The notes under the pieces were generated by a model. The model was not told the DNA's origin and did no database searches. It saw only the letters and a list, made by a program, of their open reading frames with translations. Below, piece by piece: positions 752-25,104 of a stretch of 64,000 nucleotides of DNA. Positions within the stretch are counted from its first letter, which is position 1. Each line of letters opens with the position of its first letter. A program made the position numbers and the translations under genes. Source of the DNA: a phage; sequence record OZ346158.1; one strand, given 5' to 3'.

Positions 752-1438
752 ATGGCAGAGATTAAGTCGGATGTTAACCACATCCACACTCTGCCAGATT
801 TTGTTCAGGGAGGTCTTGACTACCTACCTGGAGATTTTCTGGCTGAGAAGGTTAATTTAGTCACATTCTTAACCGTATACCTTAAAAGGTTGGAGGATGT
901 TGATAAGATGCTGGTAGGTTTGGCTGAAGGAAGATTGCTTAACAATGCCAGCGGAAGATACCTTGACGAAGTTGGTAATCAGCTTGGTATTCTTAGGAAT
1001 GGACTTTCAGATGCTGATTTTCGTGCCACACTAATTATTCAGCAGGCTGCAGCATCAAGGGGCGGGACTCGCGAAGATGTCATCTCCACCTTGCGACAAT
1101 TGTTCGGAAGAGACAATTTCGATACGTGGAAAGGAGACAACTTCAGGTTTGACATAAATATTAGAAAAACTTGCTTTGACATATTGCAGTCTATCGATCA
1201 GATCTTAGATATGCTACCATTACCTTGTCATTTGCGTCTTACAGAATCGCAAGGGCAAGCTTTTGGTTTTGAAGGGGACTCTACAGCTCTTGGCTTCGGA
1301 TCAGTGTGGGAAGAAAGCCAATTCGGAGTTGGTGGGCTGGCTACTTTGCTATATGTTCCTGACGTAAGACCTGATTGGGACACCACAACCATTTATTGTG
1401 AAAGTATTACAGTAAACGCAACTAGACAGGAGGGTTAA
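752..1438 (+). CDS. hypothetical structural-module protein
   Basis: 228-aa ORF, tightly packed after previous gene, GGCGGCGAGA RBS-like upstream; stop overlaps next start (ATGA-type coupling). Confidence 0.6.
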   Translation: MAEIKSDVNHIHTLPDFVQGGLDYLPGDFLAEKVNLVTFLTVYLKRLEDVDKMLVGLAEGRLLNNASGRYLDEVGNQLGILRNGLSDADFRATLIIQQAAASRGGTREDVISTLRQLFGRDNFDTWKGDNFRFDINIRKTCFDILQSIDQILDMLPLPCHLRLTESQGQAFGFEGDSTALGFGSVWEESQFGVGGLATLLYVPDVRPDWDTTTIYCESITVNATRQEG

Positions 1439-3510
1439 TGGCAACAGCTGTTTTTAAACCTTACCGTGATTACTCTACAATGGCTGCACAGTTTCATTAC
1501 CGCACAGTTCAGGATACTGCCGTTCCTGGTAGAGATTATGATCATGTTGAGGGCGATGTAACTATCCCAGTTGGGGCAACCAGTATTGAGATCCCAGTGG
1601 AAATTGTTGACAAATTACCCAACAGGTTGCCAAGAAGCTTCTTTATGGAGTTTTCATCAAAATCTCAAGGAGTGATGATTGGAACACAAAGGGCGAAATG
1701 TACAATAGTTTCAGATGAGAATCTTGACAGGATATCTTGGGATACTGTTGAGGAGAGAATGTTTCACCCAAGATATTGGGTTACAACCACTCAGCAGACT
1801 GAAAGTACCTGTATTGTTGCAGATAACAACTGTTGTATTAACCGTTTAGTGTCAAGAACATATGGAGGTATGGCTGGGTGCATTTGGGAAACAGTTGACA
1901 AGTATGACCATTTCGGTATTGGGTTTGATGATCACTATGAGATGAGAAACACCAAGCTTTGGTTCAGAATGTCAATAACCAACGCCAGCAACTTCTCCAC
2001 TCCTGAAAAGATGATTATGACTGTAGACCTTGTTGATGGCACAATCATCTATGTTCCTTTAGCTCAATATGCTGTCAGCATCTCAGAGGATAAAAATGTT
2101 GCAGAAATTCATATTGATTTTGAGGACTGCGTCGGGATGGACCAGAACAACAACATGATGGGTGTTGATCCTCGGCAGGTGAGAAGGATTTTAATACCAC
2201 TTATGCCTAAAGACTGGGTAAGTAATAGCACAGATCCAAGAACGGAAAATGTAGAGTGTGAGTTGCGCCTAGATCTGCTTCAGCCAGACACAGGCTGGAA
2301 AATGATGCAACTTAATAATATCCAGGTGAGAGAGCACGACGTTGGGATCTGCACCGCATATGACGATATGTGGAACGTGTCCCCTTTAAGGGTGTTGAAC
2401 AATATCAAGCGTCTGGGCTATACCGGAACCATAAACCATTATGTTGGTATGAGTCATTATTATGACTACACATGGTCAGGAACCCAATGGTCTATAAACA
2501 GAACAGGAGCGCTAAACGCTGCAGCTTATAAATGGCATGATGATTTTATGTACAATGCCAAACGACATAACTTCGACGTTATGCAATCTGTAAGTTTTGA
2601 GCTTTTCAGCGATGCCTGCCCGTTGGAATGGACCCAAAGAGACTGGAACGATAACTACGCTAAAACAGGGTATACACCTTGTAGCTACCTCCTGTCTCCA
2701 ACCATTGAAGAGGGTATGAATTTCCTTACTGCAGTATTTAAGAATTTTGCATCAGCCGCTATGAGAAACAACCTGCCAGTGATTATGCAGGTTGGTGAAC
2801 CGTGGTGGTGGTACAATACCGATACTCGTAGACCTTGTATTTATGATTACCCTACAAAGCAGGCGTTTTATGATGAGACAGGTGAGTATGCATTAGATAT
2901 TGGGACTATTGACGATCCTAAAACTGGCGGTGTTTACGACAAGTATGTAGCATTTTGTCGTGGTAAGCTTGGCGCTCGTATTGCTGCTATTTCAAAGGCA
3001 ATAAAGGCACACGCTGCATCAGCTCAGATGACAGCTCTGCTGTTTTTCCCAACCATTATGGAAACCGAGCTTACGCAAAAGCTTAACCTTGCTGACCAAT
3101 ATAAAAAGGAAGCAGGTGCTCTTGATTTCTTCTGCACCGAGTGCTACGATTGGGTGATGCAGGGAGGTATTGAAAAGGCAAAAGAGTCTGTAAACATACC
3201 TATCGTTAAGTTAGGTTGGCAACCGTCTGAAATACAATACCTTGCAGGGTTCGTTCCTAGTAAAGAGCTTGCTCCGGTATATGGTTACGACCCAACTAGG
3301 AATTACCAAGAATTTTTATGGAGATGTATTTGCGGAAACATGGCAACTATAGAGTATAGATACCCTGAGGTAAAACAGTATGTGTGGGCATACCCGCAAG
3401 TAATGTCTGACAGCATCACTGTTACCGCTAGAGATTCTACCGTGCTTCATATGGGGCAGGTTGCTCTGAAAGGGTATGTAGAAGATGTTGTCCCGCCAGA
3501 CTTCTCATAA
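1438..3510 (+). CDS. hypothetical large virion protein (690 aa)
   Basis: Long uninterrupted ORF, GGAGGG RBS, translationally coupled to upstream gene; function not recognisable. Confidence 0.65.
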   Translation: MATAVFKPYRDYSTMAAQFHYRTVQDTAVPGRDYDHVEGDVTIPVGATSIEIPVEIVDKLPNRLPRSFFMEFSSKSQGVMIGTQRAKCTIVSDENLDRISWDTVEERMFHPRYWVTTTQQTESTCIVADNNCCINRLVSRTYGGMAGCIWETVDKYDHFGIGFDDHYEMRNTKLWFRMSITNASNFSTPEKMIMTVDLVDGTIIYVPLAQYAVSISEDKNVAEIHIDFEDCVGMDQNNNMMGVDPRQVRRILIPLMPKDWVSNSTDPRTENVECELRLDLLQPDTGWKMMQLNNIQVREHDVGICTAYDDMWNVSPLRVLNNIKRLGYTGTINHYVGMSHYYDYTWSGTQWSINRTGALNAAAYKWHDDFMYNAKRHNFDVMQSVSFELFSDACPLEWTQRDWNDNYAKTGYTPCSYLLSPTIEEGMNFLTAVFKNFASAAMRNNLPVIMQVGEPWWWYNTDTRRPCIYDYPTKQAFYDETGEYALDIGTIDDPKTGGVYDKYVAFCRGKLGARIAAISKAIKAHAASAQMTALLFFPTIMETELTQKLNLADQYKKEAGALDFFCTECYDWVMQGGIEKAKESVNIPIVKLGWQPSEIQYLAGFVPSKELAPVYGYDPTRNYQEFLWRCICGNMATIEYRYPEVKQYVWAYPQVMSDSITVTARDSTVLHMGQVALKGYVEDVVPPDFS

Positions 3511-3522
3511 TCAGGAGATAAA

Positions 3523-4563
3523 ATGTCAAAACCTAGTTTTCCATTAGAGATTTGGGCAGAGGAGGATCAGGTTCTGCCTAACACCCACAGACAGAACAGG
3601 CTACGCCCGATTGATGATTTGTGGAGAAAAGGTTGGGATCTTGGTCAAAAGCCCTCATGTGAAGAACTTAACTATATTTTCAATATGCTCGGAACTTGGG
3701 CAAAATACATTGCTGACGAGCAGATCCCCGCTCAAGAAGGCCGTTATCTGGTACGTGATAATAACTTGAGTGATCTTTTGAACATTCCTGTTGCCCGTAG
3801 AAACCTTGGGATTATTACTAAGGAAGAGGCAGACGCCAGGTATGTAAAAGTTACAGGTGATACAATGACAGGCCCATTGGGTTTGCAACGTATCAACTTT
3901 AAAGCTGCAGAGACAGATAAGGCTTGGATAGAGACAACTATTGGCCCAGATAAGACAACTCTCGACTTTGGGTTAAGTGATAATACTGGTTCGTTTGATG
4001 ATGGTGGTACATCTACGGTAGATGCGTTTCGTTGGAGATTCCAGCCAACTCAGCCGGATATTAATCCAGAGTTCACTTTGATGTACCTTAACGCGATCAC
4101 GGCTAACCGTGCGCTGTTGAAAGTGGTAGGCAATGTTGAAGTTGTCGATAACATGAGGTGCAATAACCTTACTATCAGCAATACAGCAACATTCACCAAC
4201 TGTAATGTGGCTAGTCAGTTGACGGCTGGGTCAGTATATGTTAATGGTGGTGCAAGTTGTGACAGTATGGTTGTAAGAAGCCAGCACTGTGTTGTAGGTA
4301 ACAGAAATGTGGTTCGCTCTGTGAACGGAGTGACGGCTAACGGTAACGGTGATGTAACGATCACTATCCCGCAGACAGGTGTGCAAGACATCAGAATCGG
4401 TGCAAGACTTGTGGACGGCGTTTCTGAATCTCCAATCCGCAACGGCTACGTTGTCACAGGCTGGCATTTCGGTGACAAAAAAGAGATGCGTGGTTCAACC
4501 TACTGGGCAGGACCTTTACAAAAACTTGTAAATGGTCAATGGATCACTGTTAATTATGCATAG
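3523..4563 (+). CDS. tail fibre protein, paralogue A
   Basis: 346 aa; GDTMTGPLGL motif typical of phage tail fibres; homologous along its length to 5575..6621 with near-identical C-terminus YW.G..QKLVNGQWIT(V/I).YA; AGGAGA RBS. Confidence 0.7.
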   Translation: MSKPSFPLEIWAEEDQVLPNTHRQNRLRPIDDLWRKGWDLGQKPSCEELNYIFNMLGTWAKYIADEQIPAQEGRYLVRDNNLSDLLNIPVARRNLGIITKEEADARYVKVTGDTMTGPLGLQRINFKAAETDKAWIETTIGPDKTTLDFGLSDNTGSFDDGGTSTVDAFRWRFQPTQPDINPEFTLMYLNAITANRALLKVVGNVEVVDNMRCNNLTISNTATFTNCNVASQLTAGSVYVNGGASCDSMVVRSQHCVVGNRNVVRSVNGVTANGNGDVTITIPQTGVQDIRIGARLVDGVSESPIRNGYVVTGWHFGDKKEMRGSTYWAGPLQKLVNGQWITVNYA

Positions 4564-4577
4564 ATCGGAGGACTAGC

Positions 4578-5162
4578 ATGAAAATACTTCAAGAGTTTAA
4601 ACTTTACCAACCGGGATCTGGCGAATACCACGCCAACAAGGAAACCAAAGAGCTGACCCCTCAAGAGGTTGAGGACTACACCGCATACACTGGGTATTTT
4701 TTACGTAATGATGATGGCGATTGGTATGTGCAGTCAAGAACATTACGACAAGAAAATCCGGGTTGTATCTTCCTACTTGTTGACGAAAAGGGAATTCTTA
4801 AGACATCTACAGAAGAACCTGATGCCTTATGGCCTGCTCCAGGTCTTCGTGTGGTTATCGCCAAAAAAGAAGAGGTACCAGAAAACATTATGCTTCACCA
4901 CGACGCTTTGCGTTTAGTTGGTGATGAATTTGTCACAGACAATGAATTCTTTGTTCAACAGGCAGAGGGTGTCATAGAGACAGAACTTGCTTGGGCTACT
5001 GCTAGAATTGGTGCCTATCAAGACATGATTGACCTTGAATATGATCTTACTGATGACCAGAAACGTAACATCAGAGATTTGAAAATGTACAGGGTAAAAC
5101 TTCTTGAAATAGATACATCTAAAGCCCCTGACATTTTCTTCCCGGAGCGACCTACCCTCTAA
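4578..5162 (+). CDS. hypothetical protein, possible tail-fibre assembly/chaperone (by position only)
   Basis: 194-aa ORF immediately downstream of tail-fibre gene, GGAGGA RBS; function inferred only from position. Confidence 0.45.
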   Translation: MKILQEFKLYQPGSGEYHANKETKELTPQEVEDYTAYTGYFLRNDDGDWYVQSRTLRQENPGCIFLLVDEKGILKTSTEEPDALWPAPGLRVVIAKKEEVPENIMLHHDALRLVGDEFVTDNEFFVQQAEGVIETELAWATARIGAYQDMIDLEYDLTDDQKRNIRDLKMYRVKLLEIDTSKAPDIFFPERPTL

Positions 5163-5574: not shown

Positions 5575-6621
5575 GTGATGACTAAACCAGTTATCCCTCT
5601 TGATATTTGGGCCAATCAGGATGTTGTGCTTGAAAATACGGGAGAGTTGAATAAGTCTCAACCAAAAAAAGAAGAGAGATTGAAAGGTTGGGATATGACA
5701 CAAAGAGTGGCATGTGAAGTTGTTAACTTTGAACTTCACATGCTTTCTGCGTGGTTAAAGCATTTAACAGAAGATGTTGTCCCGGGATGGGATAATAGAT
5801 TCTTAAGGGTCACTAATAATCTAGCAGACGTTCCAGACAAAGCTGCTGCACGTCAAGTTCTCAATGTATACTCGCCTGAAGAAATGGACGATCTATATAT
5901 TGACAGGTCTGGAGACATAATGACTCAGACTCAAACTTTAGGTCTTCAAAGAATCGAGTTTGCATCTGCGTCAACAGACAATGCGGCAATATATACCACC
6001 ATAACTCCAGACAAGACGACGATGGATTTCTGGATTATGGACAACATCGGTGGTGCTGACGGCACAGACCTTGATGATCCTTCTCACCAAATAGACGGGT
6101 TCCGTTGGAGATTTCAACCTTCTGGTGGGCAGCCTGTGTTTTCGGCTATGAAGCTCAATGCTATAACTGCCAACCGTGCAAGACTGGCTATCCAAGGGAA
6201 TCTTGAATGCAACGATGCAAAAAGTTCCTCTGCAAATGCCAATGCGGTCACGATACCAAGAGCCACTATTAATGGACAACAATCCTGCGGAAGCGCTCAA
6301 ATAGGTGGAAGAGTTGATTGTAACGATGAAACCGTCAGGGGCCAATACGCAACAGTTGGTGGAAGAAACGTGGTCCGCAGGGTAAATGGTAACGGCGCAG
6401 ACAGTAGTGGTAACCTTACTATTCCTATGCCTAGCAGAGGGGTTGATGATGTAAGGATAGCAAACCGTTTCAAAACCACCTACAGAGAGTCAAGAGTCTA
6501 CCCTGGGCATGTGATGTGCTCTGGTAACTACGCTTATAAACACCCTTATCAAGGTGACTACTGGACAGGTGCTATCCAAAAACTTGTAAATGGTCAATGG
6601 ATCACTATATCTTATGCTTAA
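5575..6621 (+). CDS. tail fibre protein, paralogue B
   Basis: 348 aa; SGDIMTQTQTLGL motif; homologous to 3523..4563, C-terminal ~25 aa nearly identical; AGGAGAA RBS. Confidence 0.7.
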   Translation: MMTKPVIPLDIWANQDVVLENTGELNKSQPKKEERLKGWDMTQRVACEVVNFELHMLSAWLKHLTEDVVPGWDNRFLRVTNNLADVPDKAAARQVLNVYSPEEMDDLYIDRSGDIMTQTQTLGLQRIEFASASTDNAAIYTTITPDKTTMDFWIMDNIGGADGTDLDDPSHQIDGFRWRFQPSGGQPVFSAMKLNAITANRARLAIQGNLECNDAKSSSANANAVTIPRATINGQQSCGSAQIGGRVDCNDETVRGQYATVGGRNVVRRVNGNGADSSGNLTIPMPSRGVDDVRIANRFKTTYRESRVYPGHVMCSGNYAYKHPYQGDYWTGAIQKLVNGQWITISYA

Positions 6622-8661: not shown

Positions 8662-8690
8662 AACCGCTCCTGACGGGGCGGTTTTCTTAT
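8662..8690 (+). terminator. rho-independent terminator
   Basis: Stem AACCGCTCC/GGGGCGGTT (one G-U pair) with TGAC loop followed by TTCTTAT. Confidence 0.55.
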
Positions 8691-8702
8691 CTGGAGAACA
8701 CA

Positions 8703-11700
8703 ATGCTTCCAATCCCTTTGCTAAAACTTGGTCGTCATTTCCTCGATAAGAGGGGTGGAATTAAGGAACTTGCTGTTCTGTCATACCCAATAGACAACAG
8801 TGATGGTACAAGCAACACAGTATCCTATGTAAATAGCTTGGCTATACTTTTTGATGATGGTCAGCTTAATATTACGGGCTATAACAAGTTCGGGGAGTGT
8901 CGCACTGGGGATCGTAACCCTATAAACTACCCAAGCGAAACAGCCTGGAATGTTGATCATGTGTGGAGAGCAGACCGTGCGTTTGTGATCCGGACTTTTG
9001 ATAACCAGTTTTTCTACATCGGCTGCACTGCAGGTCTTATCGGATCCACTGCGGCAGGCGGTAATGATGTTTGCGTAAACGAGTGGACACCTCTTCCGGA
9101 ACAGATTGTTAAAGGGTTGCACCTTGACACCCACCCAGAGCGCCTTATTGAGGTGATGGGTGGTATTAACAACACTGTCTGGGTTATTGCAGAGGCAGAA
9201 GGCACTGGCATACTTAAACTATATGGATCTGGTAACAACACCTACGGATCTTTGCATGTAGATAAAAATCAGCATGCAACCCCTGTAAAGATTGGTGAGA
9301 CATCGGAAAATCCGGAAACAGGTCCTTGGAAAAACCCAAGCATCAACTGCGAGGTGCATGACAACTCTGTTATTTTCGGTGGTCCTAGAGGCTTCTGGAT
9401 TGCTGGATACGACTTTCTAAGAAATAACAGTAGAAACGACCTTGTTTGGCCTCCTGTGCAGATTACTCGTAACGATTTGAGGGGCATTCCTGCAGATGAA
9501 GAGTGGAAAGGGTTTATGTGCGGTCCTAACGGGGCAATAATTGCCACACAGAGGATGCACAAACCAAATGACCAGCAGCTTGTTAACGTATTCTACGGGC
9601 AAGACGTTTGGGGAGATGACACGTGGCGTTCCTTAAATATCACCTACACCCATGAGGTGATAATGGCTCGTGGATACGGCACAAGTGGCATTTTCTTCAA
9701 TAATGGCACTAAACAGTATCGTGGATTCTCTCGCAACTTGTGTAATGATATTGGTGCACAATCTGCAAACAATAGCCCTAGGGCTAATTTTATCCACTAT
9801 CAGGCTCTTGCTACAGCTAAATATGTTGAGCAACGCCTGCCAGTTAGCTGGACAGAGAGTGTTTATTTCCAAGGCATCCACAGGGAAGGTTTCTTAGGAA
9901 CCTTTACTGTTGTTAATGGCAAACTTTGGTGGTCAGGCATCCCAAGGGGGAGTTTTGCAGGATCTAACAACCTCTTTGGCGGCAGACTTAACAGCCAAGG
10001 GTTCACAGAGATTCCGGAGAATTGGTATAAAAATGTCCCGGTAGATAGCTGGGGTATCGAAGACATCTTTGATGTCAATGGTGTGAGCAATGTTAGCAAC
10101 ATTTACATCGGAGATACTGTCAAGATGAAATTGAAACCTCAGCCGGAGGGTGCTACGTTCATTATTGACAAGATTGAGTTGGTAAATGCTGCAGGCACTG
10201 TTGTTACAGATGCAAACTATCAGTTCTCCACTAACTGGAACCATGGTGGTGCTAACGAAGTTGTGGTCACCCAGTATAACCGTAACATCAACAGACGTGG
10301 TTTGTATTCTATCAAGATCACCTACCATGACAAGCATGGCACTGGAAGAACCTATACGACAAGAACTTTGAACTGGAACACTATAGTTCCTGCGTATCCG
10401 TCCAACGGCAAGTGGCATACCGTTGGTAGAAACAAGCAGTTCCATGTTAACGATACTGTATACTTTGGGCTGAATGGGACCCAGCCTGCAGTAGAAGGGG
10501 ATACATCGTATATGGTCAGACTCCACAGAATGGATGCTGGATCAGTCACTTATGATGTGACCCAAGAGATCTACGATCAAAGACGTGCCACGTATGACAA
10601 TATTGTAAAAACACAAGCCTTGTGGGAGTTCAATCCTAATGGCAAGGGTGGTAAAATGTTGCAGGTTAATGAGCAGAACGGAACGTCGTTGACTGTTCAC
10701 GAACACCCAGACCCTTGGCCTGATCCTGGAAAACCTCACCCGGGAGCTCGTACACTGAAAATTGTCAGCCATGATGCAGGATATTTCGGAATACGCTGGG
10801 AAGCTACAGTAAGATATGTCGACGGGACAACAAACAACATAGGGATTACACTTGGCGGCACTAGTGAAGATAACTCGCTGAAAATTGCCTACACGCCCAG
10901 AGGTATCTCTATTGATAGTATGGATGTTGTTCGCAATGGCTACGGCGATGTGAATGTCAAAGTTACTCTTGGCGAACATCTTGGTGGGGAAAGGATCATC
11001 ATGTATGCCTTTGATCATGATCCACGCACCAATGGAACTTATGCAAATCAGGCATGGAGTTACCTGATAAATGCACCTGAGCCGAATACTAAAGAGTTCT
11101 ACTATGGTATGAAGCGAGATGTGTGCAAGAAAACAGGAACACATGACTGGATTGCTATCTGCGTTAAAGATGAGCGCACAGCTTGGGATGAGCCTGTTAA
11201 CAGATGGTTCATAGGTATTCCTACCAGAAGTGATAAGTATGTCGCAGAATATATTGTATGCATGGGCGGTACCAACCTAAACATGTGTTGGAACGAAGAT
11301 GTAAACAAATACTCTGATTATGACTATATGAGGGATTACTCTTGTAATTTGTGGTTTAACCAAACTACAGGTTACCCTCCAAGACAGGCGAGAGTAAACC
11401 CTGCAATCTTCACAGACACGCAGGTTTTCTTGACAAAACAGGCCAACGAGGTTCAGACCTTCAAGAATAAATACGATCCTAACAAGTGGTTCTACAACTG
11501 TTACGGCGCATTTTTCTGGGGACCTGGTGAGTTACCTGGTGGGGGATCTTGCTTGAATGAGGCAACTTACGCAAGTGACTACATCATGGGGCAGGTCAAG
11601 AAGTATAAGATAATCCCCGGTCCTGAGACTTTGGGCAATGCCGTTGACCCTTATATCATCATGACTGCACTGAGATCAAACATGGATGGGACATCCATGT

Positions 11701-14339
11701 CCATGCAAATTCCGGTAACAAACGGATACAAACGTGTTGTGATGATCATTAAGTGCGACCTGATAGGTAAACAAGTTCTTGCAGAAAACGGGACATCCAC
11801 ACATCCTTTTGAGATCGCTCTGCACTATCAGTTTGCTGACTCACCTTTTGCAGGGGATAAGAGAATATCTGATACAGACGCACAGCGTTGTAAGAAAGTA
11901 TTGTTGGGTGCAGGTTGGTGGTGGTATGAGTTTGATTTAACAGACAAATTCACCGACACGTCTAAAGTTGTAACAGGACTTCGTCTAGACCTTGGCGAGA
12001 ACATGCACAAAGCTGTTTGTGATGGCACCTATGGTGACCCTACAATATACCTAAAATATGTTTCTTTTGAGCATCCGGAAGATGTTGTCTACGGTCCAAA
12101 ACTGAGATTGTTTGGCAGCTGGATTGCAAAAGATAGGGTAGGCATGGGTAAGAAGGTAAGAGGGCTCTTGGTTGATGCAGGAACAGAAGACATGCTGGTT
12201 AATGCAGTGTGGCCTGAATTACCTGGGACTCAGTGGGACAACTCAGCCAAATCTATAAACTGGTTTAACATTCATAGGGCCATGTGGACCACTAACTGCT
12301 ACTTGTGGAGAGAGCTTAACGATCAGGCCTTTGGATTCAGCGATGGTAGAAGGATGGCGATCATTTGCTGGACAACACTGCAAAGATGTTATGACCATGA
12401 CTATGAGATTGGGGGCAGGGCATGGAAAAATATCAGGGATAGAATCATAACCAATTTTGCAGACGACAACGGTGGTGGAGCACATAACTTTGGCACAAGC
12501 CGACTCATCCATTTGAACGGATCCTCAGCCTACAAGAAAGAAGGTTACTCTGGGTCTATGATCGAGTGGGGTCTGGTGAAAGATGCTCGCGTATTGATGG
12601 GCCAGCAACTTGCTGCCGCAATAGGTCCCAGCGCAGTGCAGTCGGTTAAACCAGCGTGGTTCGATATTCCATTGTGGTCACCCGGAACACCGGGAACTGC
12701 TGCAATCAACCCTACCACTGGGGATCTAGAAATCTCCTGGGAGGACTTGAAGCAGGTCGGTGGTTGGGACAAAACAGGGTACCAGGTTCAGTGGTGGAGA
12801 GCTGATGGATCTTTAGCTGCTGATGAGTTTGTTAAGGACAATTTCTACACTATGTCCTCTGCAAAAGCACAGCAATTATTTGGTCAGGCAACTCCGTCAA
12901 CGATCACCATGTCTATGTGCTGTAAAGACAACAGGACTGGAGCTTTGGGGCCAAGGGTTGCTAAAGTTTTCTCAGGTATTAAATGGAATCTACCTGTCCA
13001 AAGTATTTCATGGAAGCAAATAGGTGATAACAAGCTGCTGGTTACCCCTGCCTGTCAGTTCAACGCAACTCTTAACGTTGATCCTGCTGTTGCGGCAAAC
13101 TCAGCTAAAGCTTCTGACTTCTCTGTGTCTAACACTGCTATGGCAGATGTGAGGAAGATTGACACGCTGAACGCCAGAATTACCTGTAAAAACACTTATG
13201 GCACATTCCAGATCATCAACAACTTCACAGATGCTGATTCTAAGGTAGTGAGGACAGCAAGCCAGACTTTGAGTTTAGGAACTCTGGCCTATGCGGCCCT
13301 GATCACTGAACAGTCGGCAACACTCCAAGGAGGTGGTGTAGGCAAGTCCATTACAACACCTGTGTGGAAGCCAAATGAGTGGGTTGTGTTTGATTTGACT
13401 GTGGACTTCTCCAGCGATAATAACTGGACATGGGTAAGGAATTGTTTGTCACAGTTGATGGGCGGTCCAAGCTCCGTTAGTGATAGTCACGACTCTACTG
13501 ACCCGAGTGTGTTCCAGGTAGGTAAAACTCACCCAGAGACTGGAGAAACGTTGCCTGACAGGAAGTATGCTTTGGTTTGCATCTCTTACGGGAAGGCAGA
13601 TGTCACCTTCTCAGGGACACACACTTATAACGGAACCTACAACTTCTCAAGGAAGTATAGTCTCAAAGCAGGGAACATTATAGACGAGGTTGGTGTGCTG
13701 TATAATCCGGGCAACGGCATAGGGATTGTTGGTGGTAAACTGCAGATGCAGGAACCTTCTATTACCCCTTCCAACGTATCCGGGATTAGAAAGACTTGGG
13801 AAAGTAGTAATACCAACATTGCAACAGTGGATGCCACCACAGGACTGGTAACATTTAAAGCTACTGGGAATGTCACCATAAAGTTTGTAGTTACAGATGA
13901 TGCAGGGCGCAAAACGTCTTCAACATCTTTTACTGTCAAACAGATGGCACCACAGTGGAGAATGTGGATAGGTACAGCAACAAACGGGGCATACCCTAAT
14001 CCGGCAGGTACTTCTGGTATGAAGACTTTCTCTACAAGCAAACCGATGGAGTACGGCAGCGGTCCTAAGGTAGGGCAGATGGTGTACTTTGGTGCGTATA
14101 TTCCTGAAATTATAGGGCTTCCGAGAAGTCAGCTTCAGTTGCTGTTTGGGGCTGGTGTTGACGATCTTGCCACTTTCGGGTATAGCGACAACATCGAGGC
14201 TGCAAGGAGTTCAGGATGGGTAGGGTTCAGAATGGAGTCTGGAAAGGAAGGCAGGATTCTAGGGACAGCCTCTATAGGTGTTATGTTCCCTGGTGACCAG
14301 CAGTATCGTCTAGAAGCCTACGCAACCTTTTCTCGTTAA
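8703..14339 (+). CDS. giant virion protein (1878 aa) with C-terminal bacterial Ig-like (Big_2-type) domain; probable host-recognition/tail protein
   Basis: 5.6-kb uninterrupted ORF; Ig-like segment ...VSGIRKTWESSNTNIATVDATTGLVTFKATGNVTIKFVVTDDAGRKTSSTSFTVKQ near C-terminus; last gene of structural block. Confidence 0.7.
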   Translation: MLPIPLLKLGRHFLDKRGGIKELAVLSYPIDNSDGTSNTVSYVNSLAILFDDGQLNITGYNKFGECRTGDRNPINYPSETAWNVDHVWRADRAFVIRTFDNQFFYIGCTAGLIGSTAAGGNDVCVNEWTPLPEQIVKGLHLDTHPERLIEVMGGINNTVWVIAEAEGTGILKLYGSGNNTYGSLHVDKNQHATPVKIGETSENPETGPWKNPSINCEVHDNSVIFGGPRGFWIAGYDFLRNNSRNDLVWPPVQITRNDLRGIPADEEWKGFMCGPNGAIIATQRMHKPNDQQLVNVFYGQDVWGDDTWRSLNITYTHEVIMARGYGTSGIFFNNGTKQYRGFSRNLCNDIGAQSANNSPRANFIHYQALATAKYVEQRLPVSWTESVYFQGIHREGFLGTFTVVNGKLWWSGIPRGSFAGSNNLFGGRLNSQGFTEIPENWYKNVPVDSWGIEDIFDVNGVSNVSNIYIGDTVKMKLKPQPEGATFIIDKIELVNAAGTVVTDANYQFSTNWNHGGANEVVVTQYNRNINRRGLYSIKITYHDKHGTGRTYTTRTLNWNTIVPAYPSNGKWHTVGRNKQFHVNDTVYFGLNGTQPAVEGDTSYMVRLHRMDAGSVTYDVTQEIYDQRRATYDNIVKTQALWEFNPNGKGGKMLQVNEQNGTSLTVHEHPDPWPDPGKPHPGARTLKIVSHDAGYFGIRWEATVRYVDGTTNNIGITLGGTSEDNSLKIAYTPRGISIDSMDVVRNGYGDVNVKVTLGEHLGGERIIMYAFDHDPRTNGTYANQAWSYLINAPEPNTKEFYYGMKRDVCKKTGTHDWIAICVKDERTAWDEPVNRWFIGIPTRSDKYVAEYIVCMGGTNLNMCWNEDVNKYSDYDYMRDYSCNLWFNQTTGYPPRQARVNPAIFTDTQVFLTKQANEVQTFKNKYDPNKWFYNCYGAFFWGPGELPGGGSCLNEATYASDYIMGQVKKYKIIPGPETLGNAVDPYIIMTALRSNMDGTSMSMQIPVTNGYKRVVMIIKCDLIGKQVLAENGTSTHPFEIALHYQFADSPFAGDKRISDTDAQRCKKVLLGAGWWWYEFDLTDKFTDTSKVVTGLRLDLGENMHKAVCDGTYGDPTIYLKYVSFEHPEDVVYGPKLRLFGSWIAKDRVGMGKKVRGLLVDAGTEDMLVNAVWPELPGTQWDNSAKSINWFNIHRAMWTTNCYLWRELNDQAFGFSDGRRMAIICWTTLQRCYDHDYEIGGRAWKNIRDRIITNFADDNGGGAHNFGTSRLIHLNGSSAYKKEGYSGSMIEWGLVKDARVLMGQQLAAAIGPSAVQSVKPAWFDIPLWSPGTPGTAAINPTTGDLEISWEDLKQVGGWDKTGYQVQWWRADGSLAADEFVKDNFYTMSSAKAQQLFGQATPSTITMSMCCKDNRTGALGPRVAKVFSGIKWNLPVQSISWKQIGDNKLLVTPACQFNATLNVDPAVAANSAKASDFSVSNTAMADVRKIDTLNARITCKNTYGTFQIINNFTDADSKVVRTASQTLSLGTLAYAALITEQSATLQGGGVGKSITTPVWKPNEWVVFDLTVDFSSDNNWTWVRNCLSQLMGGPSSVSDSHDSTDPSVFQVGKTHPETGETLPDRKYALVCISYGKADVTFSGTHTYNGTYNFSRKYSLKAGNIIDEVGVLYNPGNGIGIVGGKLQMQEPSITPSNVSGIRKTWESSNTNIATVDATTGLVTFKATGNVTIKFVVTDDAGRKTSSTSFTVKQMAPQWRMWIGTATNGAYPNPAGTSGMKTFSTSKPMEYGSGPKVGQMVYFGAYIPEIIGLPRSQLQLLFGAGVDDLATFGYSDNIEAARSSGWVGFRMESGKEGRILGTASIGVMFPGDQQYRLEAYATFSR

Positions 14340-14351
14340 CAAGGGGGTAAA

Positions 14352-14384
14352 TAAAAAGGGGCCAAACGGCCCCTTTCTTTTTAT
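14352..14384. terminator. bidirectional rho-independent terminator between convergent blocks
   Basis: AGGGGCC-AAAC-GGCCCCT hairpin flanked by A-run upstream and T-run downstream; sits between + gene ending 14339 and - gene ending 14387. Confidence 0.75.
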
Positions 14385-14386
14385 AG

Positions 14387-14587
14387 TTAGTAATACTCCC
14401 AACATGCCCCATCTTCAGACGGCTTGACGCGCTTACCTTTATGGTCAACATAGGTATAGCCACAACCTTCACAAATAACAGGTGCTGCATAGCCTTCCTT
14501 CCACTGATCCTCAGTGATCAATCCTTTCAGATCTCCGCAGTCACGACCAAACAACTCTTCAGAACAGTCTTTACAAAAATCAGCCAT
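14387..14587 (-). CDS. small zinc-ribbon-like protein
   Basis: 66 aa with two CxxC pairs (CKDC ... CEGC). Confidence 0.5.
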   Translation of the reverse strand: MADFCKDCSEELFGRDCGDLKGLITEDQWKEGYAAPVICEGCGYTYVDHKGKRVKPSEDGACWEYY

Positions 14588-14656
14588 CTCTATCAGTCTC
14601 CATATTTAACCAATCTATATTACATATTGCCGAAGAAACAGTATTTCATTTCATCA

Positions 14657-14875
14657 TCACAGATCTCCAACAACTTCCCAAATACCCCAGTGAGCATCTA
14701 TATCCTTGATAAAGTATCTTTCTCCACGGTTTGTCCACACACCTATCCCAACTTTACCATCTATCCCATTGTATACATCTGCCTCATACTCTTTGCCCGG
14801 TGTAAAGTGTACACCCATCATAAGGGCTGTTATTCCATTAGGATTTTTAAATTTAACAAATTTTACTTTGCTCAT
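14657..14875 (-). CDS. hypothetical protein
   Basis: 72-aa ORF co-oriented in - strand block. Confidence 0.45.
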   Translation of the reverse strand: MSKVKFVKFKNPNGITALMMGVHFTPGKEYEADVYNGIDGKVGIGVWTNRGERYFIKDIDAHWGIWEVVGDL

Positions 14876-14876
14876 A

Positions 14877-15206
14877 TTACTTAATCCTTGCAGTTACAGT
14901 AGCGCTATACCCCATGTAGTTATGAGACATAAAGAATGTAAGCCCTTTAAGTTCAGGATTCTTTCTAAGAAATCGTTTCAATTTTCGAATGCAATTAACA
15001 CCATGATCATAGTTTGAGAAATTAAATTTAATACCCTGCTCCATCATAGTGCACACTTCTTCATGGGTATGCCATTGTCTATCGTGGTCACAAAACCAGT
15101 AACCACTACCTTCTTTTTCTTGGATATGCAATCCCCAAAATACTTTATGCATTGGATATTTTGGTTTTCTACCATGATAATGTAGTTTAATATTCACATG
15201 TGCCAT
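14877..15206 (-). CDS. hypothetical protein (His/Cys-rich)
   Basis: Start moved to ATG at 15206 (MAHVNIKL...) because the longer ORF start at 15254 lies inside the -10 box of the upstream promoter. Confidence 0.45.
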   Translation of the reverse strand: MAHVNIKLHYHGRKPKYPMHKVFWGLHIQEKEGSGYWFCDHDRQWHTHEEVCTMMEQGIKFNFSNYDHGVNCIRKLKRFLRKNPELKGLTFFMSHNYMGYSATVTARIK

Positions 15207-18812: not shown

Positions 18813-20294
18813 TTACTTAGCGTACTCGATTAATTCCACAGTTTTACCAAAGCTAGGGATATAATTTTTATTATACCCTTCGGTTAGAACCCATAAAGTA
18901 TCGTACTTTTTCCACTTGTTGTCAACAGCCTTTTGTTCAAAGTTATGCTCAAAGTATAGGTCGGTCAGGACGATGACATCTTTTGCATTTGGTATGTTGG
19001 CATCCAGATACTCGAACACGCAAGCAGCTGTTGTTCCCCATGTTGAGTGGACCTCATAGTTGATCATTTCGTCTATGTTGCCGCGAGTGTATACTTTAAC
19101 CTCTCCAACCTCAGTTGACCAACAGAACATTGTAACCTTAAATTCTTTATACAGATTGCACAATCCGGTGATTTCATTGAACATTTTCTTTAAAGTTCTT
19201 TGAGAGATCGAGCCAGAAACGTCTAAAGCCACCACAATATCTATAGTGTTTTCCGGATTACGACCAGGAACAATAACGTGCTGGTTCTTGTTTATAGCTC
19301 CGACTTTTCGCATTGTGCTGGTCAAAGACCCAGATCGGCGACCAGGTTTTCTGTAGGTCAGTTCGGCCTTTCTTTTAGACAACATACGCTGCTTGATGAT
19401 GTCTATATAATTGATTACAGGCTTACCTCTATTCTTGACAAACTCACGAACCGCCTCAGGGCAACGACCTCCGGAAGCTTGCATTGCTGCCTCAAGCATG
19501 TCACCAGAGTCCTGCATGGCCTGATCTTTATCAGATTGGCTGATTACAGGTTGTGGCTGATCATACCCCATAGCCTTTCCAAGATCATCACTGGTGCCAC
19601 CGTTCCCACTCATGTGATCATCGGTTTGTCGCTTATCTCCTTGAGAGTTCTCACCTTTACCGCTCTTACTTTTACCGTTATTCTGATCTCTTTGCTTATC
19701 AAGAACTGCATAGACGTTCTCAGCAATCCATCCATGAAACTTCATGTCGCAGTAGCAGTTAGCTAAGAAGCCAAAAGGCTTGCCTTTCACGAACGTAGTG
19801 CTTTTCCCCTTCGGGAAGAAAACACAAGGAGGCTTGCTAAAGTCAACCACAAGACCTGTGTTGATAACGTGATCACAAGCAATATTGAACAGTTCCGGCT
19901 CAAAGCTTTTACCACGGACCAGGTGATCACAGATAATATGCCCCACCTCATGTGACAGAAGGAAGGCCACCTCTTTCACAGATTTTGGGGAATAGAAAAC
20001 TTCAGCCATCTCAAACTGCTCGTCAGTTAGAGAAGCCTTAAGAATAGCCTTGCGTTCATCAGCCAATCCCATAATGAACTCAGGGCTGTAATAAATGCGT
20101 TTATGGTCGGTTGCCATGGTGGAGCACCATGTGTGGTTTTCTACGAACTGCAACCCTGACAGCAGTGTGCCATAAAACGGCAGCTTTTCAAGGAGATACA
20201 TACGTGCAGCCTGCAACATTCTCAGGGCATCATCTTTCTGTGAGGCAATGATTTCTGAACTTCTGCTATCCATTAAAACTCCAGAAGGGGCCAT
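18813..20294 (-). CDS. VWA-domain protein with N-terminal putative zinc metallopeptidase motif
   Basis: 493 aa; HExxH motif LSHEVGHIICDH in N-terminal half; VWA MIDAS-like motif VVALDVSGSIS in C-terminal half. Confidence 0.75.
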   Translation of the reverse strand: MAPSGVLMDSRSSEIIASQKDDALRMLQAARMYLLEKLPFYGTLLSGLQFVENHTWCSTMATDHKRIYYSPEFIMGLADERKAILKASLTDEQFEMAEVFYSPKSVKEVAFLLSHEVGHIICDHLVRGKSFEPELFNIACDHVINTGLVVDFSKPPCVFFPKGKSTTFVKGKPFGFLANCYCDMKFHGWIAENVYAVLDKQRDQNNGKSKSGKGENSQGDKRQTDDHMSGNGGTSDDLGKAMGYDQPQPVISQSDKDQAMQDSGDMLEAAMQASGGRCPEAVREFVKNRGKPVINYIDIIKQRMLSKRKAELTYRKPGRRSGSLTSTMRKVGAINKNQHVIVPGRNPENTIDIVVALDVSGSISQRTLKKMFNEITGLCNLYKEFKVTMFCWSTEVGEVKVYTRGNIDEMINYEVHSTWGTTAACVFEYLDANIPNAKDVIVLTDLYFEHNFEQKAVDNKWKKYDTLWVLTEGYNKNYIPSFGKTVELIEYAK

Positions 20295-23614: not shown

Positions 23615-23920
23615 GTGGTGGCAAGGATGCCACTTAAAAGAGTAATAAACATGTTATACCAGAAACACGAACTTTGTGCAGAAAAAGAGTTAAATTTTGA
23701 CAAAGTTATCCACAGATATTGTTATGGGAAAACCGGAAGACAACTAAGAAGGTGCACTCCAGCATTCTTTCACCCCAGCAGGCGGCTAAGTCCTGAAGAA
23801 GCAACAGCAGAAAGGGTTGCATACAACTGGGAAGTTGTGTACGATATTGACAGATCCGATGTGACATCTGTTTTGGAAAACTTTGAAAACACTTACACAC
23901 AAGTAGAGGATTTTTACTAA
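23615..23920 (+). CDS. hypothetical protein
   Basis: 101-aa ORF; GTG start at 23615 or ATG at 23627 (start uncertain). Confidence 0.4.
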   Translation: MVARMPLKRVINMLYQKHELCAEKELNFDKVIHRYCYGKTGRQLRRCTPAFFHPSRRLSPEEATAERVAYNWEVVYDIDRSDVTSVLENFENTYTQVEDFY

Positions 23921-25104
23921 TGTCAAGAAACGTATTTGAAAGTGGTCAAATCACTGTCCGTGAGTTGCCAGCTATCATTCAGTTTGCCCAGCGTCATAAC
24001 CGATCTGTCCTGATTTTAGGACCAATGGGTGTGGGAAAGAGTCAGGTGATGAAGCAGATCGCTGATAATATGTTCGGTGAGCGAGATGACAACCTGGTTG
24101 ACGTGCGGCTGTCAGATAAAGATCCTGCCGACTTATCTGGGCTACCTATCCCTGTAGAAGCTGATGGAACTACACGTACAGTGTTTGCAATTCCAGAATT
24201 TTGGCCTGCAGATCCGAACTGGAGCGGAATTATCTTTCTGGATGAGCTTACTCATGCAGATAACTATCTGCAAAAGGTTGCAATGCAGATTATGCTCGAC
24301 CACAAGTGCGGCACCTATGCATTCCCTAAAGGCTCTGTTTTTGTGGCTGCGGGTAACCGTTCTACAGATGGTGCTGTTCTTTCGGCGCTCGAAGCTCCTC
24401 TGGCTAACCGCTTTATCATTGTAGAGGTTACAAGCAATGCAGAGGTGTTTATTGAGGACTACGCATTCCTCAACGGGGTTCACTCCTCTGTGATTGGGTA
24501 TCTGAAAAGAGTTCCATCAGCTATTGATAATTATGAGGCTATGGCTGAGATTAATTGTCCATCTTTTGCCACACCACGATCTTGGGTTGCTGCATCTGAC
24601 ATCTTGCACGATTTTGACAGCGGTATTATTTCTGACGCTATGGCCCGTGTTCTTCTGCAAGGTGCTATTGGTCACACTGCAGCGGTAGAGATCTGGACCT
24701 ACCACACCAAGAAACGCAACTTACCGGAAATCGGTCGGATTATGGCAGGGGGTTGCAAAGAATACGTAGGTCCTAAACAGCCGGACATCTTGTGGATTCT
24801 TGGATCTGAAGGTTGTATCGCTATTCGTAATATGATGGAAAATGCAAGTATCTCTGACGAAGATCTTGTTAGCTGTGTGGCAAACTTCCTCGATTTCCTT
24901 TGGGAAAATTTCAAGGACGAGAACCGAGATTTTGTATTCTCAGTCTTTATGGCGATGATGAAACCTAATGCCTTAGGAAATGCCTTGCTTATCGGTAAAG
25001 GGCGTGACAAGATTGTTGCTCAGCTGATTAAAGCATACCCAAACCTGATGAAGATTGTAAAAGAGTTTGGTGAAGAGTTTAGCGCCATTTTGGCTAAAGC
25101 TTGA
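23920..25104 (+). CDS. MoxR-like AAA+ ATPase
   Basis: 394 aa; Walker A LILGPMGVGKSQ, Walker B IIFLDELTHAD, sensor region AAGNRST and RF arginine typical of MoxR/CbbQ-type ATPases. Confidence 0.8.
   Translation: MSRNVFESGQITVRELPAIIQFAQRHNRSVLILGPMGVGKSQVMKQIADNMFGERDDNLVDVRLSDKDPADLSGLPIPVEADGTTRTVFAIPEFWPADPNWSGIIFLDELTHADNYLQKVAMQIMLDHKCGTYAFPKGSVFVAAGNRSTDGAVLSALEAPLANRFIIVEVTSNAEVFIEDYAFLNGVHSSVIGYLKRVPSAIDNYEAMAEINCPSFATPRSWVAASDILHDFDSGIISDAMARVLLQGAIGHTAAVEIWTYHTKKRNLPEIGRIMAGGCKEYVGPKQPDILWILGSEGCIAIRNMMENASISDEDLVSCVANFLDFLWENFKDENRDFVFSVFMAMMKPNALGNALLIGKGRDKIVAQLIKAYPNLMKIVKEFGEEFSAILAKA

Follow-up and report, generated by a model that had tools for sequence, protein, structure and literature searches.

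A very large Ig-like-domain protein with a predicted RCC1-like propeller, encoded at the end of the tail-fiber block of an rV5-like phage

The window analyzed here is a stretch of 64,000 nucleotides of phage DNA (sequence record OZ346158.1), and the subject of this report is a plus-strand gene at positions 8703..14339. The gene is an open reading frame (ORF) of 1878 codons, which begins with ATG and contains no internal stop codon, and its product has a calculated mass of 208.5 kDa and an isoelectric point of 6.5. According to sequence comparison, this product is the orthologue of gp27 of phage rV5, and its source is an rV5-like Vequintavirus myophage. The rV5 protein was listed as a "conserved hypothetical protein" of 1878 amino acids (aa) and 208,334 Da with a Big_2 domain. 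PHROG 15684 covers the protein of the window completely (aa 1-1878 of 1878, E = 0), and the gene is 97.3% identical at the nucleotide level to its counterparts in the Vequintavirus phages Murica, pangalan, nimi, and CarlMeissner. The rV5-type protein is the largest one of rV5-like phages, and its gene takes up about 4% of the genome.

The chance probability of an open frame of this length was estimated from base composition at about 1e-46, assuming that about 5.5% of random codons are stop codons, and the longest overlapping ORF on the opposite strand is 200 aa long. The whole-gene ratio of nonsynonymous to synonymous substitution rates (dN/dS), calculated against six orthologues, is 0.05-0.11, indicating a protein-coding gene under purifying selection along its whole length. 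An earlier note, made from the letters of this DNA alone, had described a single 5.6-kb ORF that closes the structural block and carries a Big_2-type immunoglobulin (Ig)-like segment near its C-terminus, and these points were borne out. The frame is uninterrupted in the window and intact in more than 100 genomes; the Pfam Big_2 domain was found at aa 1682-1733 (E 4e-8); and baseplate and fiber genes precede the gene on the plus strand, while a hairpin (14355-14376), minus-strand genes, and a flip of the GC skew follow it. The same note had considered that frameshifts might reveal several genes. With more than 100 intact copies, the locus is one gene and not several, and the interpretation of split ORFs as separate genes was rejected, because the split versions carry single-event mutations at different sites in otherwise collinear sequence and represent independent breaks.

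At least 80% of the gene length was found in 108 of the 121 matching phage records, with full-length copies encoding 1873-1878 aa. A tblastn search of phage records confined the full-length protein to Vequintavirus (110 records), and close metagenomic relatives were found in addition. Vequintavirus orthologues, such as CarlMeissner bas48_0041, FV3_00027, and LL12_026, share 91-99% aa identity over 100% of the length, and the position of the gene is conserved as the last plus-strand gene of the fiber block, after a 581-aa fiber gene. They have been labeled by curators as "Ig-like domain-containing protein", "structural protein with Ig domain", or "lateral tail fiber protein with intimin domain", and also as "hypothetical". 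The metagenomic relatives (1711-1976 aa) show 40-74% identity and the same gene order; two of them, P0009 (1711 aa) and P0014 (1716 aa), whose contigs measure 130-142 kb, stop near aa 1650 of the window protein and are devoid of the Big_2 and terminal domains. The first 197 aa are common to the last fiber-block gene of phAPEC8-type phages (about 40% identity, tblastn E 8e-22) and also match 4MG-like and GAP31-like phages (about 30% identity, tblastn). Conservation within the family is highest in aa 1-450 (about 70-80% even in distant members), intermediate in aa 800-1300, and lowest beyond aa 1300, with the least conserved stretch between family branches at aa 1450-1550 (12-18%). About 15 "Campylobacter phage" records (GenBank MG0656xx, host C. 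jejuni) are 93-95% identical in nucleotide sequence to this E. coli rV5-like gene, and the C. jejuni host label of these records looks doubtful.

The domain order of the protein is a propeller, about three Ig-like sandwiches, a family-specific module, four or five beta-sandwiches including Big_2, and a tip of 127 aa (Table 1). The N-terminal RCC1-like propeller is well supported as a prediction via transitive homology, and not by a direct above-threshold match. A profile of the first 450 aa retrieved the 588-aa metagenomic protein P0019 (E 6e-66, 98% of the query) and the 503-aa protein P0018. Both of them, together with phAPEC8_00180, pass the Pfam cut-off for the RCC1 repeat (24-26 bits versus 21.7) and match an RCC1-like domain model, and P0019 and phAPEC8_00180 match "regulator of chromosome condensation" in PHROGs (E 1e-30 to 1e-34). 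A profile of these three proteins matches six blades of HERC2 in PDB (E 8e-8), and also RPGR, UVR8, HERC1, and RCC2 (E 8e-8 to 1e-3 over all PDB matches). The window protein alone gave sub-threshold matches, namely WD40_RLD at E 1.7e-4 (21 bits versus a cut-off of 150, PF25390 and PF00415 being tested) and RCC1_2 at E 0.046, and a PDB search with its N-terminal family profile yielded no match. The low-confidence AlphaFold2 (AF2) model of the N-terminus retrieved UVR8, HERC1/2, RCC1, and RCC2 in Foldseek with a probability of 0.9-1.0, over only about 170 columns. Seven blade-like segments can be read by eye from aa ~45 to ~437, and internal blade repeats were not significant in hhalign with an alignment of low effective sequence number (Neff 1.3). 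The minimal family member, P0019, consists of the propeller and two Big_2 domains within 588 aa, and the rV5-type protein appears from its sequence to be a large expansion (roughly 1,000-1,300 aa) of this plan.

In the whole-protein Pfam scan, nothing besides Big_2 (PF02368) was above threshold; this domain scored 33.5 bits versus a gathering score of 22.8, and 38.2 bits on the C-terminal fragment, and its segment matches intimin Ig domains in PDB. PF26918, given in precomputed annotations, was rejected as an extra domain, since it is Ig_Eae and covers the same Ig segment. Domain-by-domain Pfam scans gave only a weak fn3 hint, homologues of the aa 450-800 region showed a weak Bact_surface_Ig-like match, and PDB sequence searches with the whole protein or the whole-family profile returned only Ig matches or nothing. 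That large regions lack a recognizable motif holds for direct Pfam scans. Two AF2 models, of aa 1-800 and of aa 781-1878, were built from alignments of 16 sequences, and their mean predicted local distance difference test (pLDDT) values were 47.7 and 53.6. Usable parts of these models are the Ig-like pieces, the inserted sandwich at aa 966-1124, and some of the propeller, and the confident pieces are all beta-sandwiches. For the C-terminal half, Foldseek found Ig/cadherin-like chains, including NUP210, protocadherins, S-layer proteins, and PrgB, and among viral models it found Ig-decorated tail proteins, a Hoc protein, and PVP-SE1 gp40.

The central module is the most unusual part of the protein. 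It is conserved in all family branches (dN/dS about 0.05-0.07), is rich in Asp, Glu, His, Trp, and Cys, and contains the invariant motifs DAGTEDMLVNAVWP, NWFNxHRAMW, CWTxLxRCY, EIGGRxW, and EGYSGSMIEWG. An exhaustive hidden Markov model search of its profile against 1.84 billion representative proteins retrieved only its own family, seven members searched in Pfam at E up to 10 gave nothing, and a profile search of PDB gave nothing. For aa 800-1320, a recognizable catalytic domain was not found in any of these three sources. The AF2 confidence of the module is too low for reading a fold.

The other end of the protein is variable. The final 119 aa align with the C-terminal portion of PHROG 215, which is named "structural protein with Ig domain" (E 4e-16); within the terminal domain, AF2 modeled aa 1770-1878 with less confidence, and the 127-aa domain as a whole has no match in PDB. 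Among Vequintavirus copies of the gene, blocks with almost no synonymous divergence are mixed with saturated ones, a mosaic that points to recombination. Amino acid divergence is concentrated in the last ~180 codons (dN about 0.2, dN/dS about 0.35), and the comparison of C-terminal variability proposed in the earlier note revealed the last 127 aa to be an allelic, loop-variable tip with two alleles, one of the window/FV3/LL12 type and one of the FFH2/WalterGehring type. The switch between them begins exactly after Big_2, at aa ~1752, and it affects two patches, aa ~1752-1800 and aa ~1843-1878, while the core of the domain is conserved, as would be anticipated for a distal domain that binds a ligand. 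When phage records were searched more widely with the C-terminal 378 aa, they fell into two groups, about 76 records with at least 90% identity and about 38 with 60-90%.

In the rV5 virion proteome, which was obtained by multidimensional protein identification technology (MudPIT), gp27 was detected with three peptides and nine spectra (3.1% coverage), versus 2030 spectra for the capsid protein. None of the three peptides is fully tryptic, all being semi- or non-tryptic, and their scores are modest; two of them have SpR ranks of 9 and 14, and gp27 adjoins in the list the 660-aa gp1, which by its size is taken to be the non-structural rIIA. The designation "virion protein" in the earlier note is thus weakly supported by these peptides, and the virion association of gp27 is plausible but weakly shown.

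Broken alleles of the gene were found in a series of related phages and assemblies (Table 1). The V18 copy is annotated as four ORFs, reflecting either advanced decay or poor assembly, and a separate C-terminal ORF of 396 aa in APECc02 suggests a further broken allele. Of seven cases in which the neighboring 581-aa gene could be checked, six have an intact copy of it, and Alma is the one that does not. Sequencing errors may explain some of the indels but are unlikely for the two nonsense substitutions. About eight independent breaks suggest that loss of the gene is compatible with growth on laboratory hosts.

Table 1. Features of the gene at 8703..14339 and its surroundings in the window, and broken alleles of the gene in other records
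Feature	Coordinates	Strand	Remarks
Terminator-like hairpin	8662..8683	+	9-bp stem, 6 GC pairs, T-rich tail; between the 581-aa fiber gene and the gene at 8703
Shine-Dalgarno sequence GGAG	8693..8696	+	6 nt before ATG; read directly
Coding sequence, 1878 aa	8703..14339	+	Orthologue (by sequence) of rV5 gp27, CarlMeissner bas48_0041, PHROG 15684
Predicted RCC1-like 7-bladed beta-propeller, aa ~20-445	8760..10037	+	Transitive homology, Foldseek, blades read by eye
About three beta-sandwich (Ig-like) domains, aa 450-800	10050..11102	+	Only aa 450-565 with moderate confidence
Family-specific central module, aa 801-1329	11103..12689	+	Without detectable homologue; helical parts pLDDT 22-45
Beta-sandwich inserted in central module, aa 966-1124	11598..12074	+	pLDDT 70-84
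FN3-like beta-sandwich, aa 1330-1425	12690..12977	+	Weak Pfam fn3 match, E 0.05; pLDDT 55-81
Two beta-sandwiches, aa 1450-1660 (1450-1580, 1590-1660)	13050..13682	+	AF2, Foldseek
Big_2 (intimin-type) Ig-like domain, aa 1670-1751 (to aa 1755 in the AF2 model)	13710..13955	+	Pfam envelope aa 1682-1733; pLDDT 75-91
Terminal domain, aa 1752-1878 (127 aa)	13956..14336	+	Matches C-terminal part of PHROG 215; two alleles
Terminator-like hairpin closing the plus-strand structural block	14355..14376	+	Scan, sequence
Broken allele, naswa			1-nt deletion at nt 2284 of the gene
Broken allele, ime			2-nt deletion at nt 3155 of the gene
Broken allele, Alma			1-nt deletion at nt 621 of the gene
Broken allele, phita32			Nonsense at codon 1439
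Broken allele, V18	NC_041937, 301-4860		Eight deletions: 696, 24, 35, 158, 153, 1, 10, 3 bp; 696 bp inside the propeller
Broken allele, EI-SP-GF			Frameshift; unverified record
Broken allele, SRR22133733			Nonsense at codon 558
Broken allele, SRR27718206			1-nt insertion at nt 4057 of the gene

The genes upstream in the window encode a Baseplate_J fragment, a TIM-barrel fiber, two paralogous short tail fibers, a Caudo_TAP chaperone, and the 581-aa fiber protein. The plus-strand gene at 1438-3510 encodes a 690-aa protein with Calx-beta, NCTSP_N, and TIM-barrel_NCTSP domains (Pfam E 4e-80), which resembles the non-contractile sheath protein gp65 of N4. This product corresponds to the deacetylase fiber, which has been linked in the literature to recognition of the enterobacterial common antigen/N4 glycan receptor (ECA/NGR) in Vequintavirus. 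The short-tail-fiber genes at 3523-4563 (346 aa) and 5575-6621 (348 aa), both on the plus strand, flank the Caudo_TAP chaperone gene at 4578-5162; in the rV5 paper, the two short-tail-fiber paralogues of that phage were reported to be 42% identical and suggested to recognize two lipopolysaccharide (LPS) chemotypes. A terminator is annotated in phage Alma at the site equivalent to the hairpin between the 581-aa gene and the gene at 8703, and another one in phAPEC8 at the equivalent junction before the last fiber-block gene. Given this hairpin and the lack of space for a promoter before the ATG, the gene is probably expressed by read-through. Beyond the closing hairpin, the minus-strand genes are small. 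Further downstream, the minus-strand gene at 18813-20294 (493 aa) matches by position and size a DUF2201-type "putative metallopeptidase" of related genomes, and the plus-strand gene at 23920-25104 (394 aa) matches in the same way a MoxR-type ATPase, in both cases according to annotations only; the pair lies in the early region, beside a gene annotated as an anti-sigma factor.

We tentatively favor, at a little less than an even chance, the reading that the protein is a very large, low-copy, and conditionally dispensable accessory adhesin of the tail periphery in rV5-like phages. It is probably made in small amounts, as indicated by the upstream terminator-like hairpin and the nine versus 2030 spectra in rV5, and is probably not needed for plaques on laboratory hosts. 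One end would dock the protein on the baseplate or the fiber network. The conserved propeller would be the favored docking end by analogy with lambda gpV and T5 pb10, which attach to the virion through a non-Ig domain and expose their Ig-like domain to the outside. The Ig-like chain may form a thin and flexible arm of roughly 45-60 nm, as estimated from the domain count. Its Ig-like domains and the variable tip would bind glycans of the surface or of mucus weakly and reversibly, so that in natural habitats encounters become more frequent, and committed recognition would be left to the deacetylase fiber (ECA/NGR) and the short tail fibers (LPS core). Published work assigned the ECA/NGR polysaccharide as primary receptor to the deacetylase fiber and the LPS core as terminal receptor to the short tail fibers; no role for the rV5 gp27-type protein was found in these published receptor assignments, and literature searches found no functional study, host-range mutation, or cryo-electron microscopy (cryo-EM) placement of it.

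The earlier note had proposed a long fiber or host-adhesion protein. The adhesion part agrees with the adhesion-type architecture, the position at the end of the tail-fiber module, and the variable tip, while classical fiber features were absent in Pfam. Trimerization or fiber modules (coiled coil, triple beta-helix, collar, intramolecular chaperone) were not found in lenient Pfam scans of the whole protein and its fragments, in which no dedicated coiled-coil predictor was run. Moreover, the recognizable parts, namely the RCC1-like propeller and the Ig/cadherin-like sandwiches, are folds best known from single polypeptide chains, and what comes after the gene is a terminator-like hairpin and a change of strand instead of an assembly-chaperone gene. 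The accessory-adhesin reading is also supported by the position of the gene as the last one of the fiber block, which is the same in a metagenomic relative with 40% identity and in phages of the phAPEC8 type.

Several observations weigh against an accessory adhesin docked by its propeller. The mass spectrometry evidence for gp27 in rV5 virions is marginal, and the cryo-EM papers searched on phi92 and phiTE mention no homologue and are hence silent on its location. A related terminal-gene protein of phi92-like phages starts with a Big_2 pair and has no propeller, and docking may accordingly not be the task of the propeller. The quality of both AF2 models is poor. As for dispensability, short G-runs are the site of some of the frameshifts, which could have arisen from sequencing errors, the neighboring gene of Alma is also short, and the EI-SP-GF record is unverified. 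The strong purifying selection over the whole length argues that the protein matters in nature. In addition, the central module could carry an activity outside this model.

A true lateral tail fiber, which is how BASEL annotated the protein ("lateral tail fiber protein with intimin domain"), would be a trimeric receptor-binding protein that forms one of the three Vequintavirinae fiber sets, with an N-terminal anchor and a C-terminal tip that binds the receptor. The gene indeed lies in the fiber cluster directly after other fiber genes, its conserved N-terminus with a variable C-terminal tip is typical of fibers, and thin 70-nm fibers have occasionally been seen on rV5; the literature, moreover, leaves the gene-to-fiber assignment of the three sets open, with fiber II of phi92 unassigned. 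However, we consider this identity unlikely, because Pfam detected no fiber family, coiled coil, beta-helix, or chaperone domain and no chaperone gene follows, the recognizable parts being a propeller and Ig-like sandwiches. The very low spectral counts in rV5, the approximately eight independent broken alleles in viable isolates or assemblies, and the 91-99% identity across isolates apart from the tip also speak against it, and the K-12 receptors are explained by other fibers. The annotation as a lateral tail fiber should be treated as unproven. Enzymatic domains, which the earlier note had also allowed for, may still be present in the sense that the central module (aa ~800-1330) could be a glycan-degrading or glycan-modifying domain of an unrepresented fold, carried on the Ig-like arm like the depolymerase fibers of the neighborhood. 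The conservation of the module, which equals that of the propeller, its short motifs with numerous invariant Asp, Glu, His, Trp, and Cys residues, and its low dN/dS would suit an enzyme, its modeled helical segments and inserted beta-sandwich would be compatible with a carbohydrate-active one, and neighboring fiber genes hold glycan-processing domains. Nevertheless, no homologue and no catalytic domain was recognized in the 1.84 billion representatives, Pfam, or PDB, the model confidence does not allow a fold to be read, and the conserved aromatic and acidic motifs fit binding or packing equally well, which makes this interpretation improbable. Similarly doubtful is the broader idea that the module is an unseen enzymatic or receptor-binding fold and the protein a distinct, non-fibrous class of tail appendage, anchored by or binding via its RCC1-like propeller and not through a trimeric shaft.

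The least probable of the interpretations considered, and a quite unlikely one, is a Hoc-type decoration of the head or neck, which would serve mucus adherence or particle aggregation from the capsid, or else a protein that is no stable virion component and has an intracellular role. This would account for the marginal virion evidence, and it draws on the match of the C-terminal 290 aa to PHROG 215, which is filed under "head and packaging", on the structural matches to a Hoc protein and a Big_2 decoration protein, and on the suggestion of other authors that RCC1-like virion proteins have a capsid-internal role. PHROG categories, however, reflect annotation and not experiment; the gene belongs to the tail-fiber block and is distant from the head genes, "tail protein" is the label of its N-terminal family (PHROG 11922), and rV5 already has an abundant head decoration protein, gp61.

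Compared with known systems, rV5 gp27 and the Vequintavirus orthologues match the protein of the window over its full length, share the position and neighbors of its gene, and differ in nothing of substance. The proteins phAPEC8_00180 (891 aa, PHROG 11922 "tail protein") and P0019 are also encoded by the last fiber-block gene, with a homologous propeller to about aa 440 and Big_2 downstream; unlike the rV5-type protein, phAPEC8_00180-type proteins are 600-900 aa long and have neither the ~520-aa central module nor the greater part of the Ig-like array. PVP-SE1 gp40 (604 aa) probably belongs to this group, on the basis of a structural match and the orthologue table of another paper. In the record of phi92 (NC_023693), gp152 (13321-13929) contains two Big_2 domains, and gp153 (14096-14983) carries the remark "no RBS, weak prodigal statistics"; they cover positions 1-219 and 358-655 of PHROG 32204, and by this alignment they look like one terminal fiber-block gene split in the record. 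The C-terminus of gp153 also matches the PHROG "tail sheath and receptor binding protein", and gp153 was tested and rejected as a degenerate propeller.

Ig-like domains on virion proteins are likewise found in T4 Hoc, T5 pb10, the C-terminal Big_2 domain of lambda gpV, and Big_2 decoration or tail-tube proteins, and T4 Hoc is non-essential. By analogy with such accessory proteins, weak binding to glycans or mucus would be the expected role. They are, however, 100-500 aa in length with a defined capsid- or tube-binding domain, whereas the rV5-type protein has 1878 aa with a propeller, an orphan module, and a gene in the fiber block. RCC1-like propellers are also present in W70_237-239 of Septuagintavirus and in eleven proteins of the jumbo phage phAPEC6; their genes are located elsewhere in the genome, and no Ig-like array has been described in them. 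The RCC1-like proteins of W70, which represents another genus of Vequintavirinae, were detected in virions by mass spectrometry, and a role of the W70 and phAPEC6 proteins in DNA condensation has only been speculated. The recurrent broken alleles resemble the case of lambda Stf, an accessory adsorption appendage lost without penalty in laboratory culture: this side tail fiber is broken by a frameshift in laboratory lambda. Stf, in contrast, is a trimeric fiber with a dedicated assembly chaperone and has no sequence relationship to the rV5-type protein.

The existence of this gene is not new, since it is present and annotated in more than 100 public genomes. What is added to the annotations is the predicted RCC1-like propeller with the family that it marks at the end of the fiber block, the central module without relatives, the tip with two alleles, and the recurrent broken alleles. 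None of these four points establishes a new kind of system, and we rate the protein as an uncharacterized accessory virion protein with Ig-like domains. Few coliphages are isolated as often as the rV5-like phages, which also serve in cocktails for biocontrol and therapy. Structural work would find a well-defined target in the orphan central module, and the broken alleles provide natural null mutants as well as a practical warning. If the protein is indeed a conditionally dispensable arm, laboratory-passaged stocks may silently lose a trait that is important in the gut or on food.

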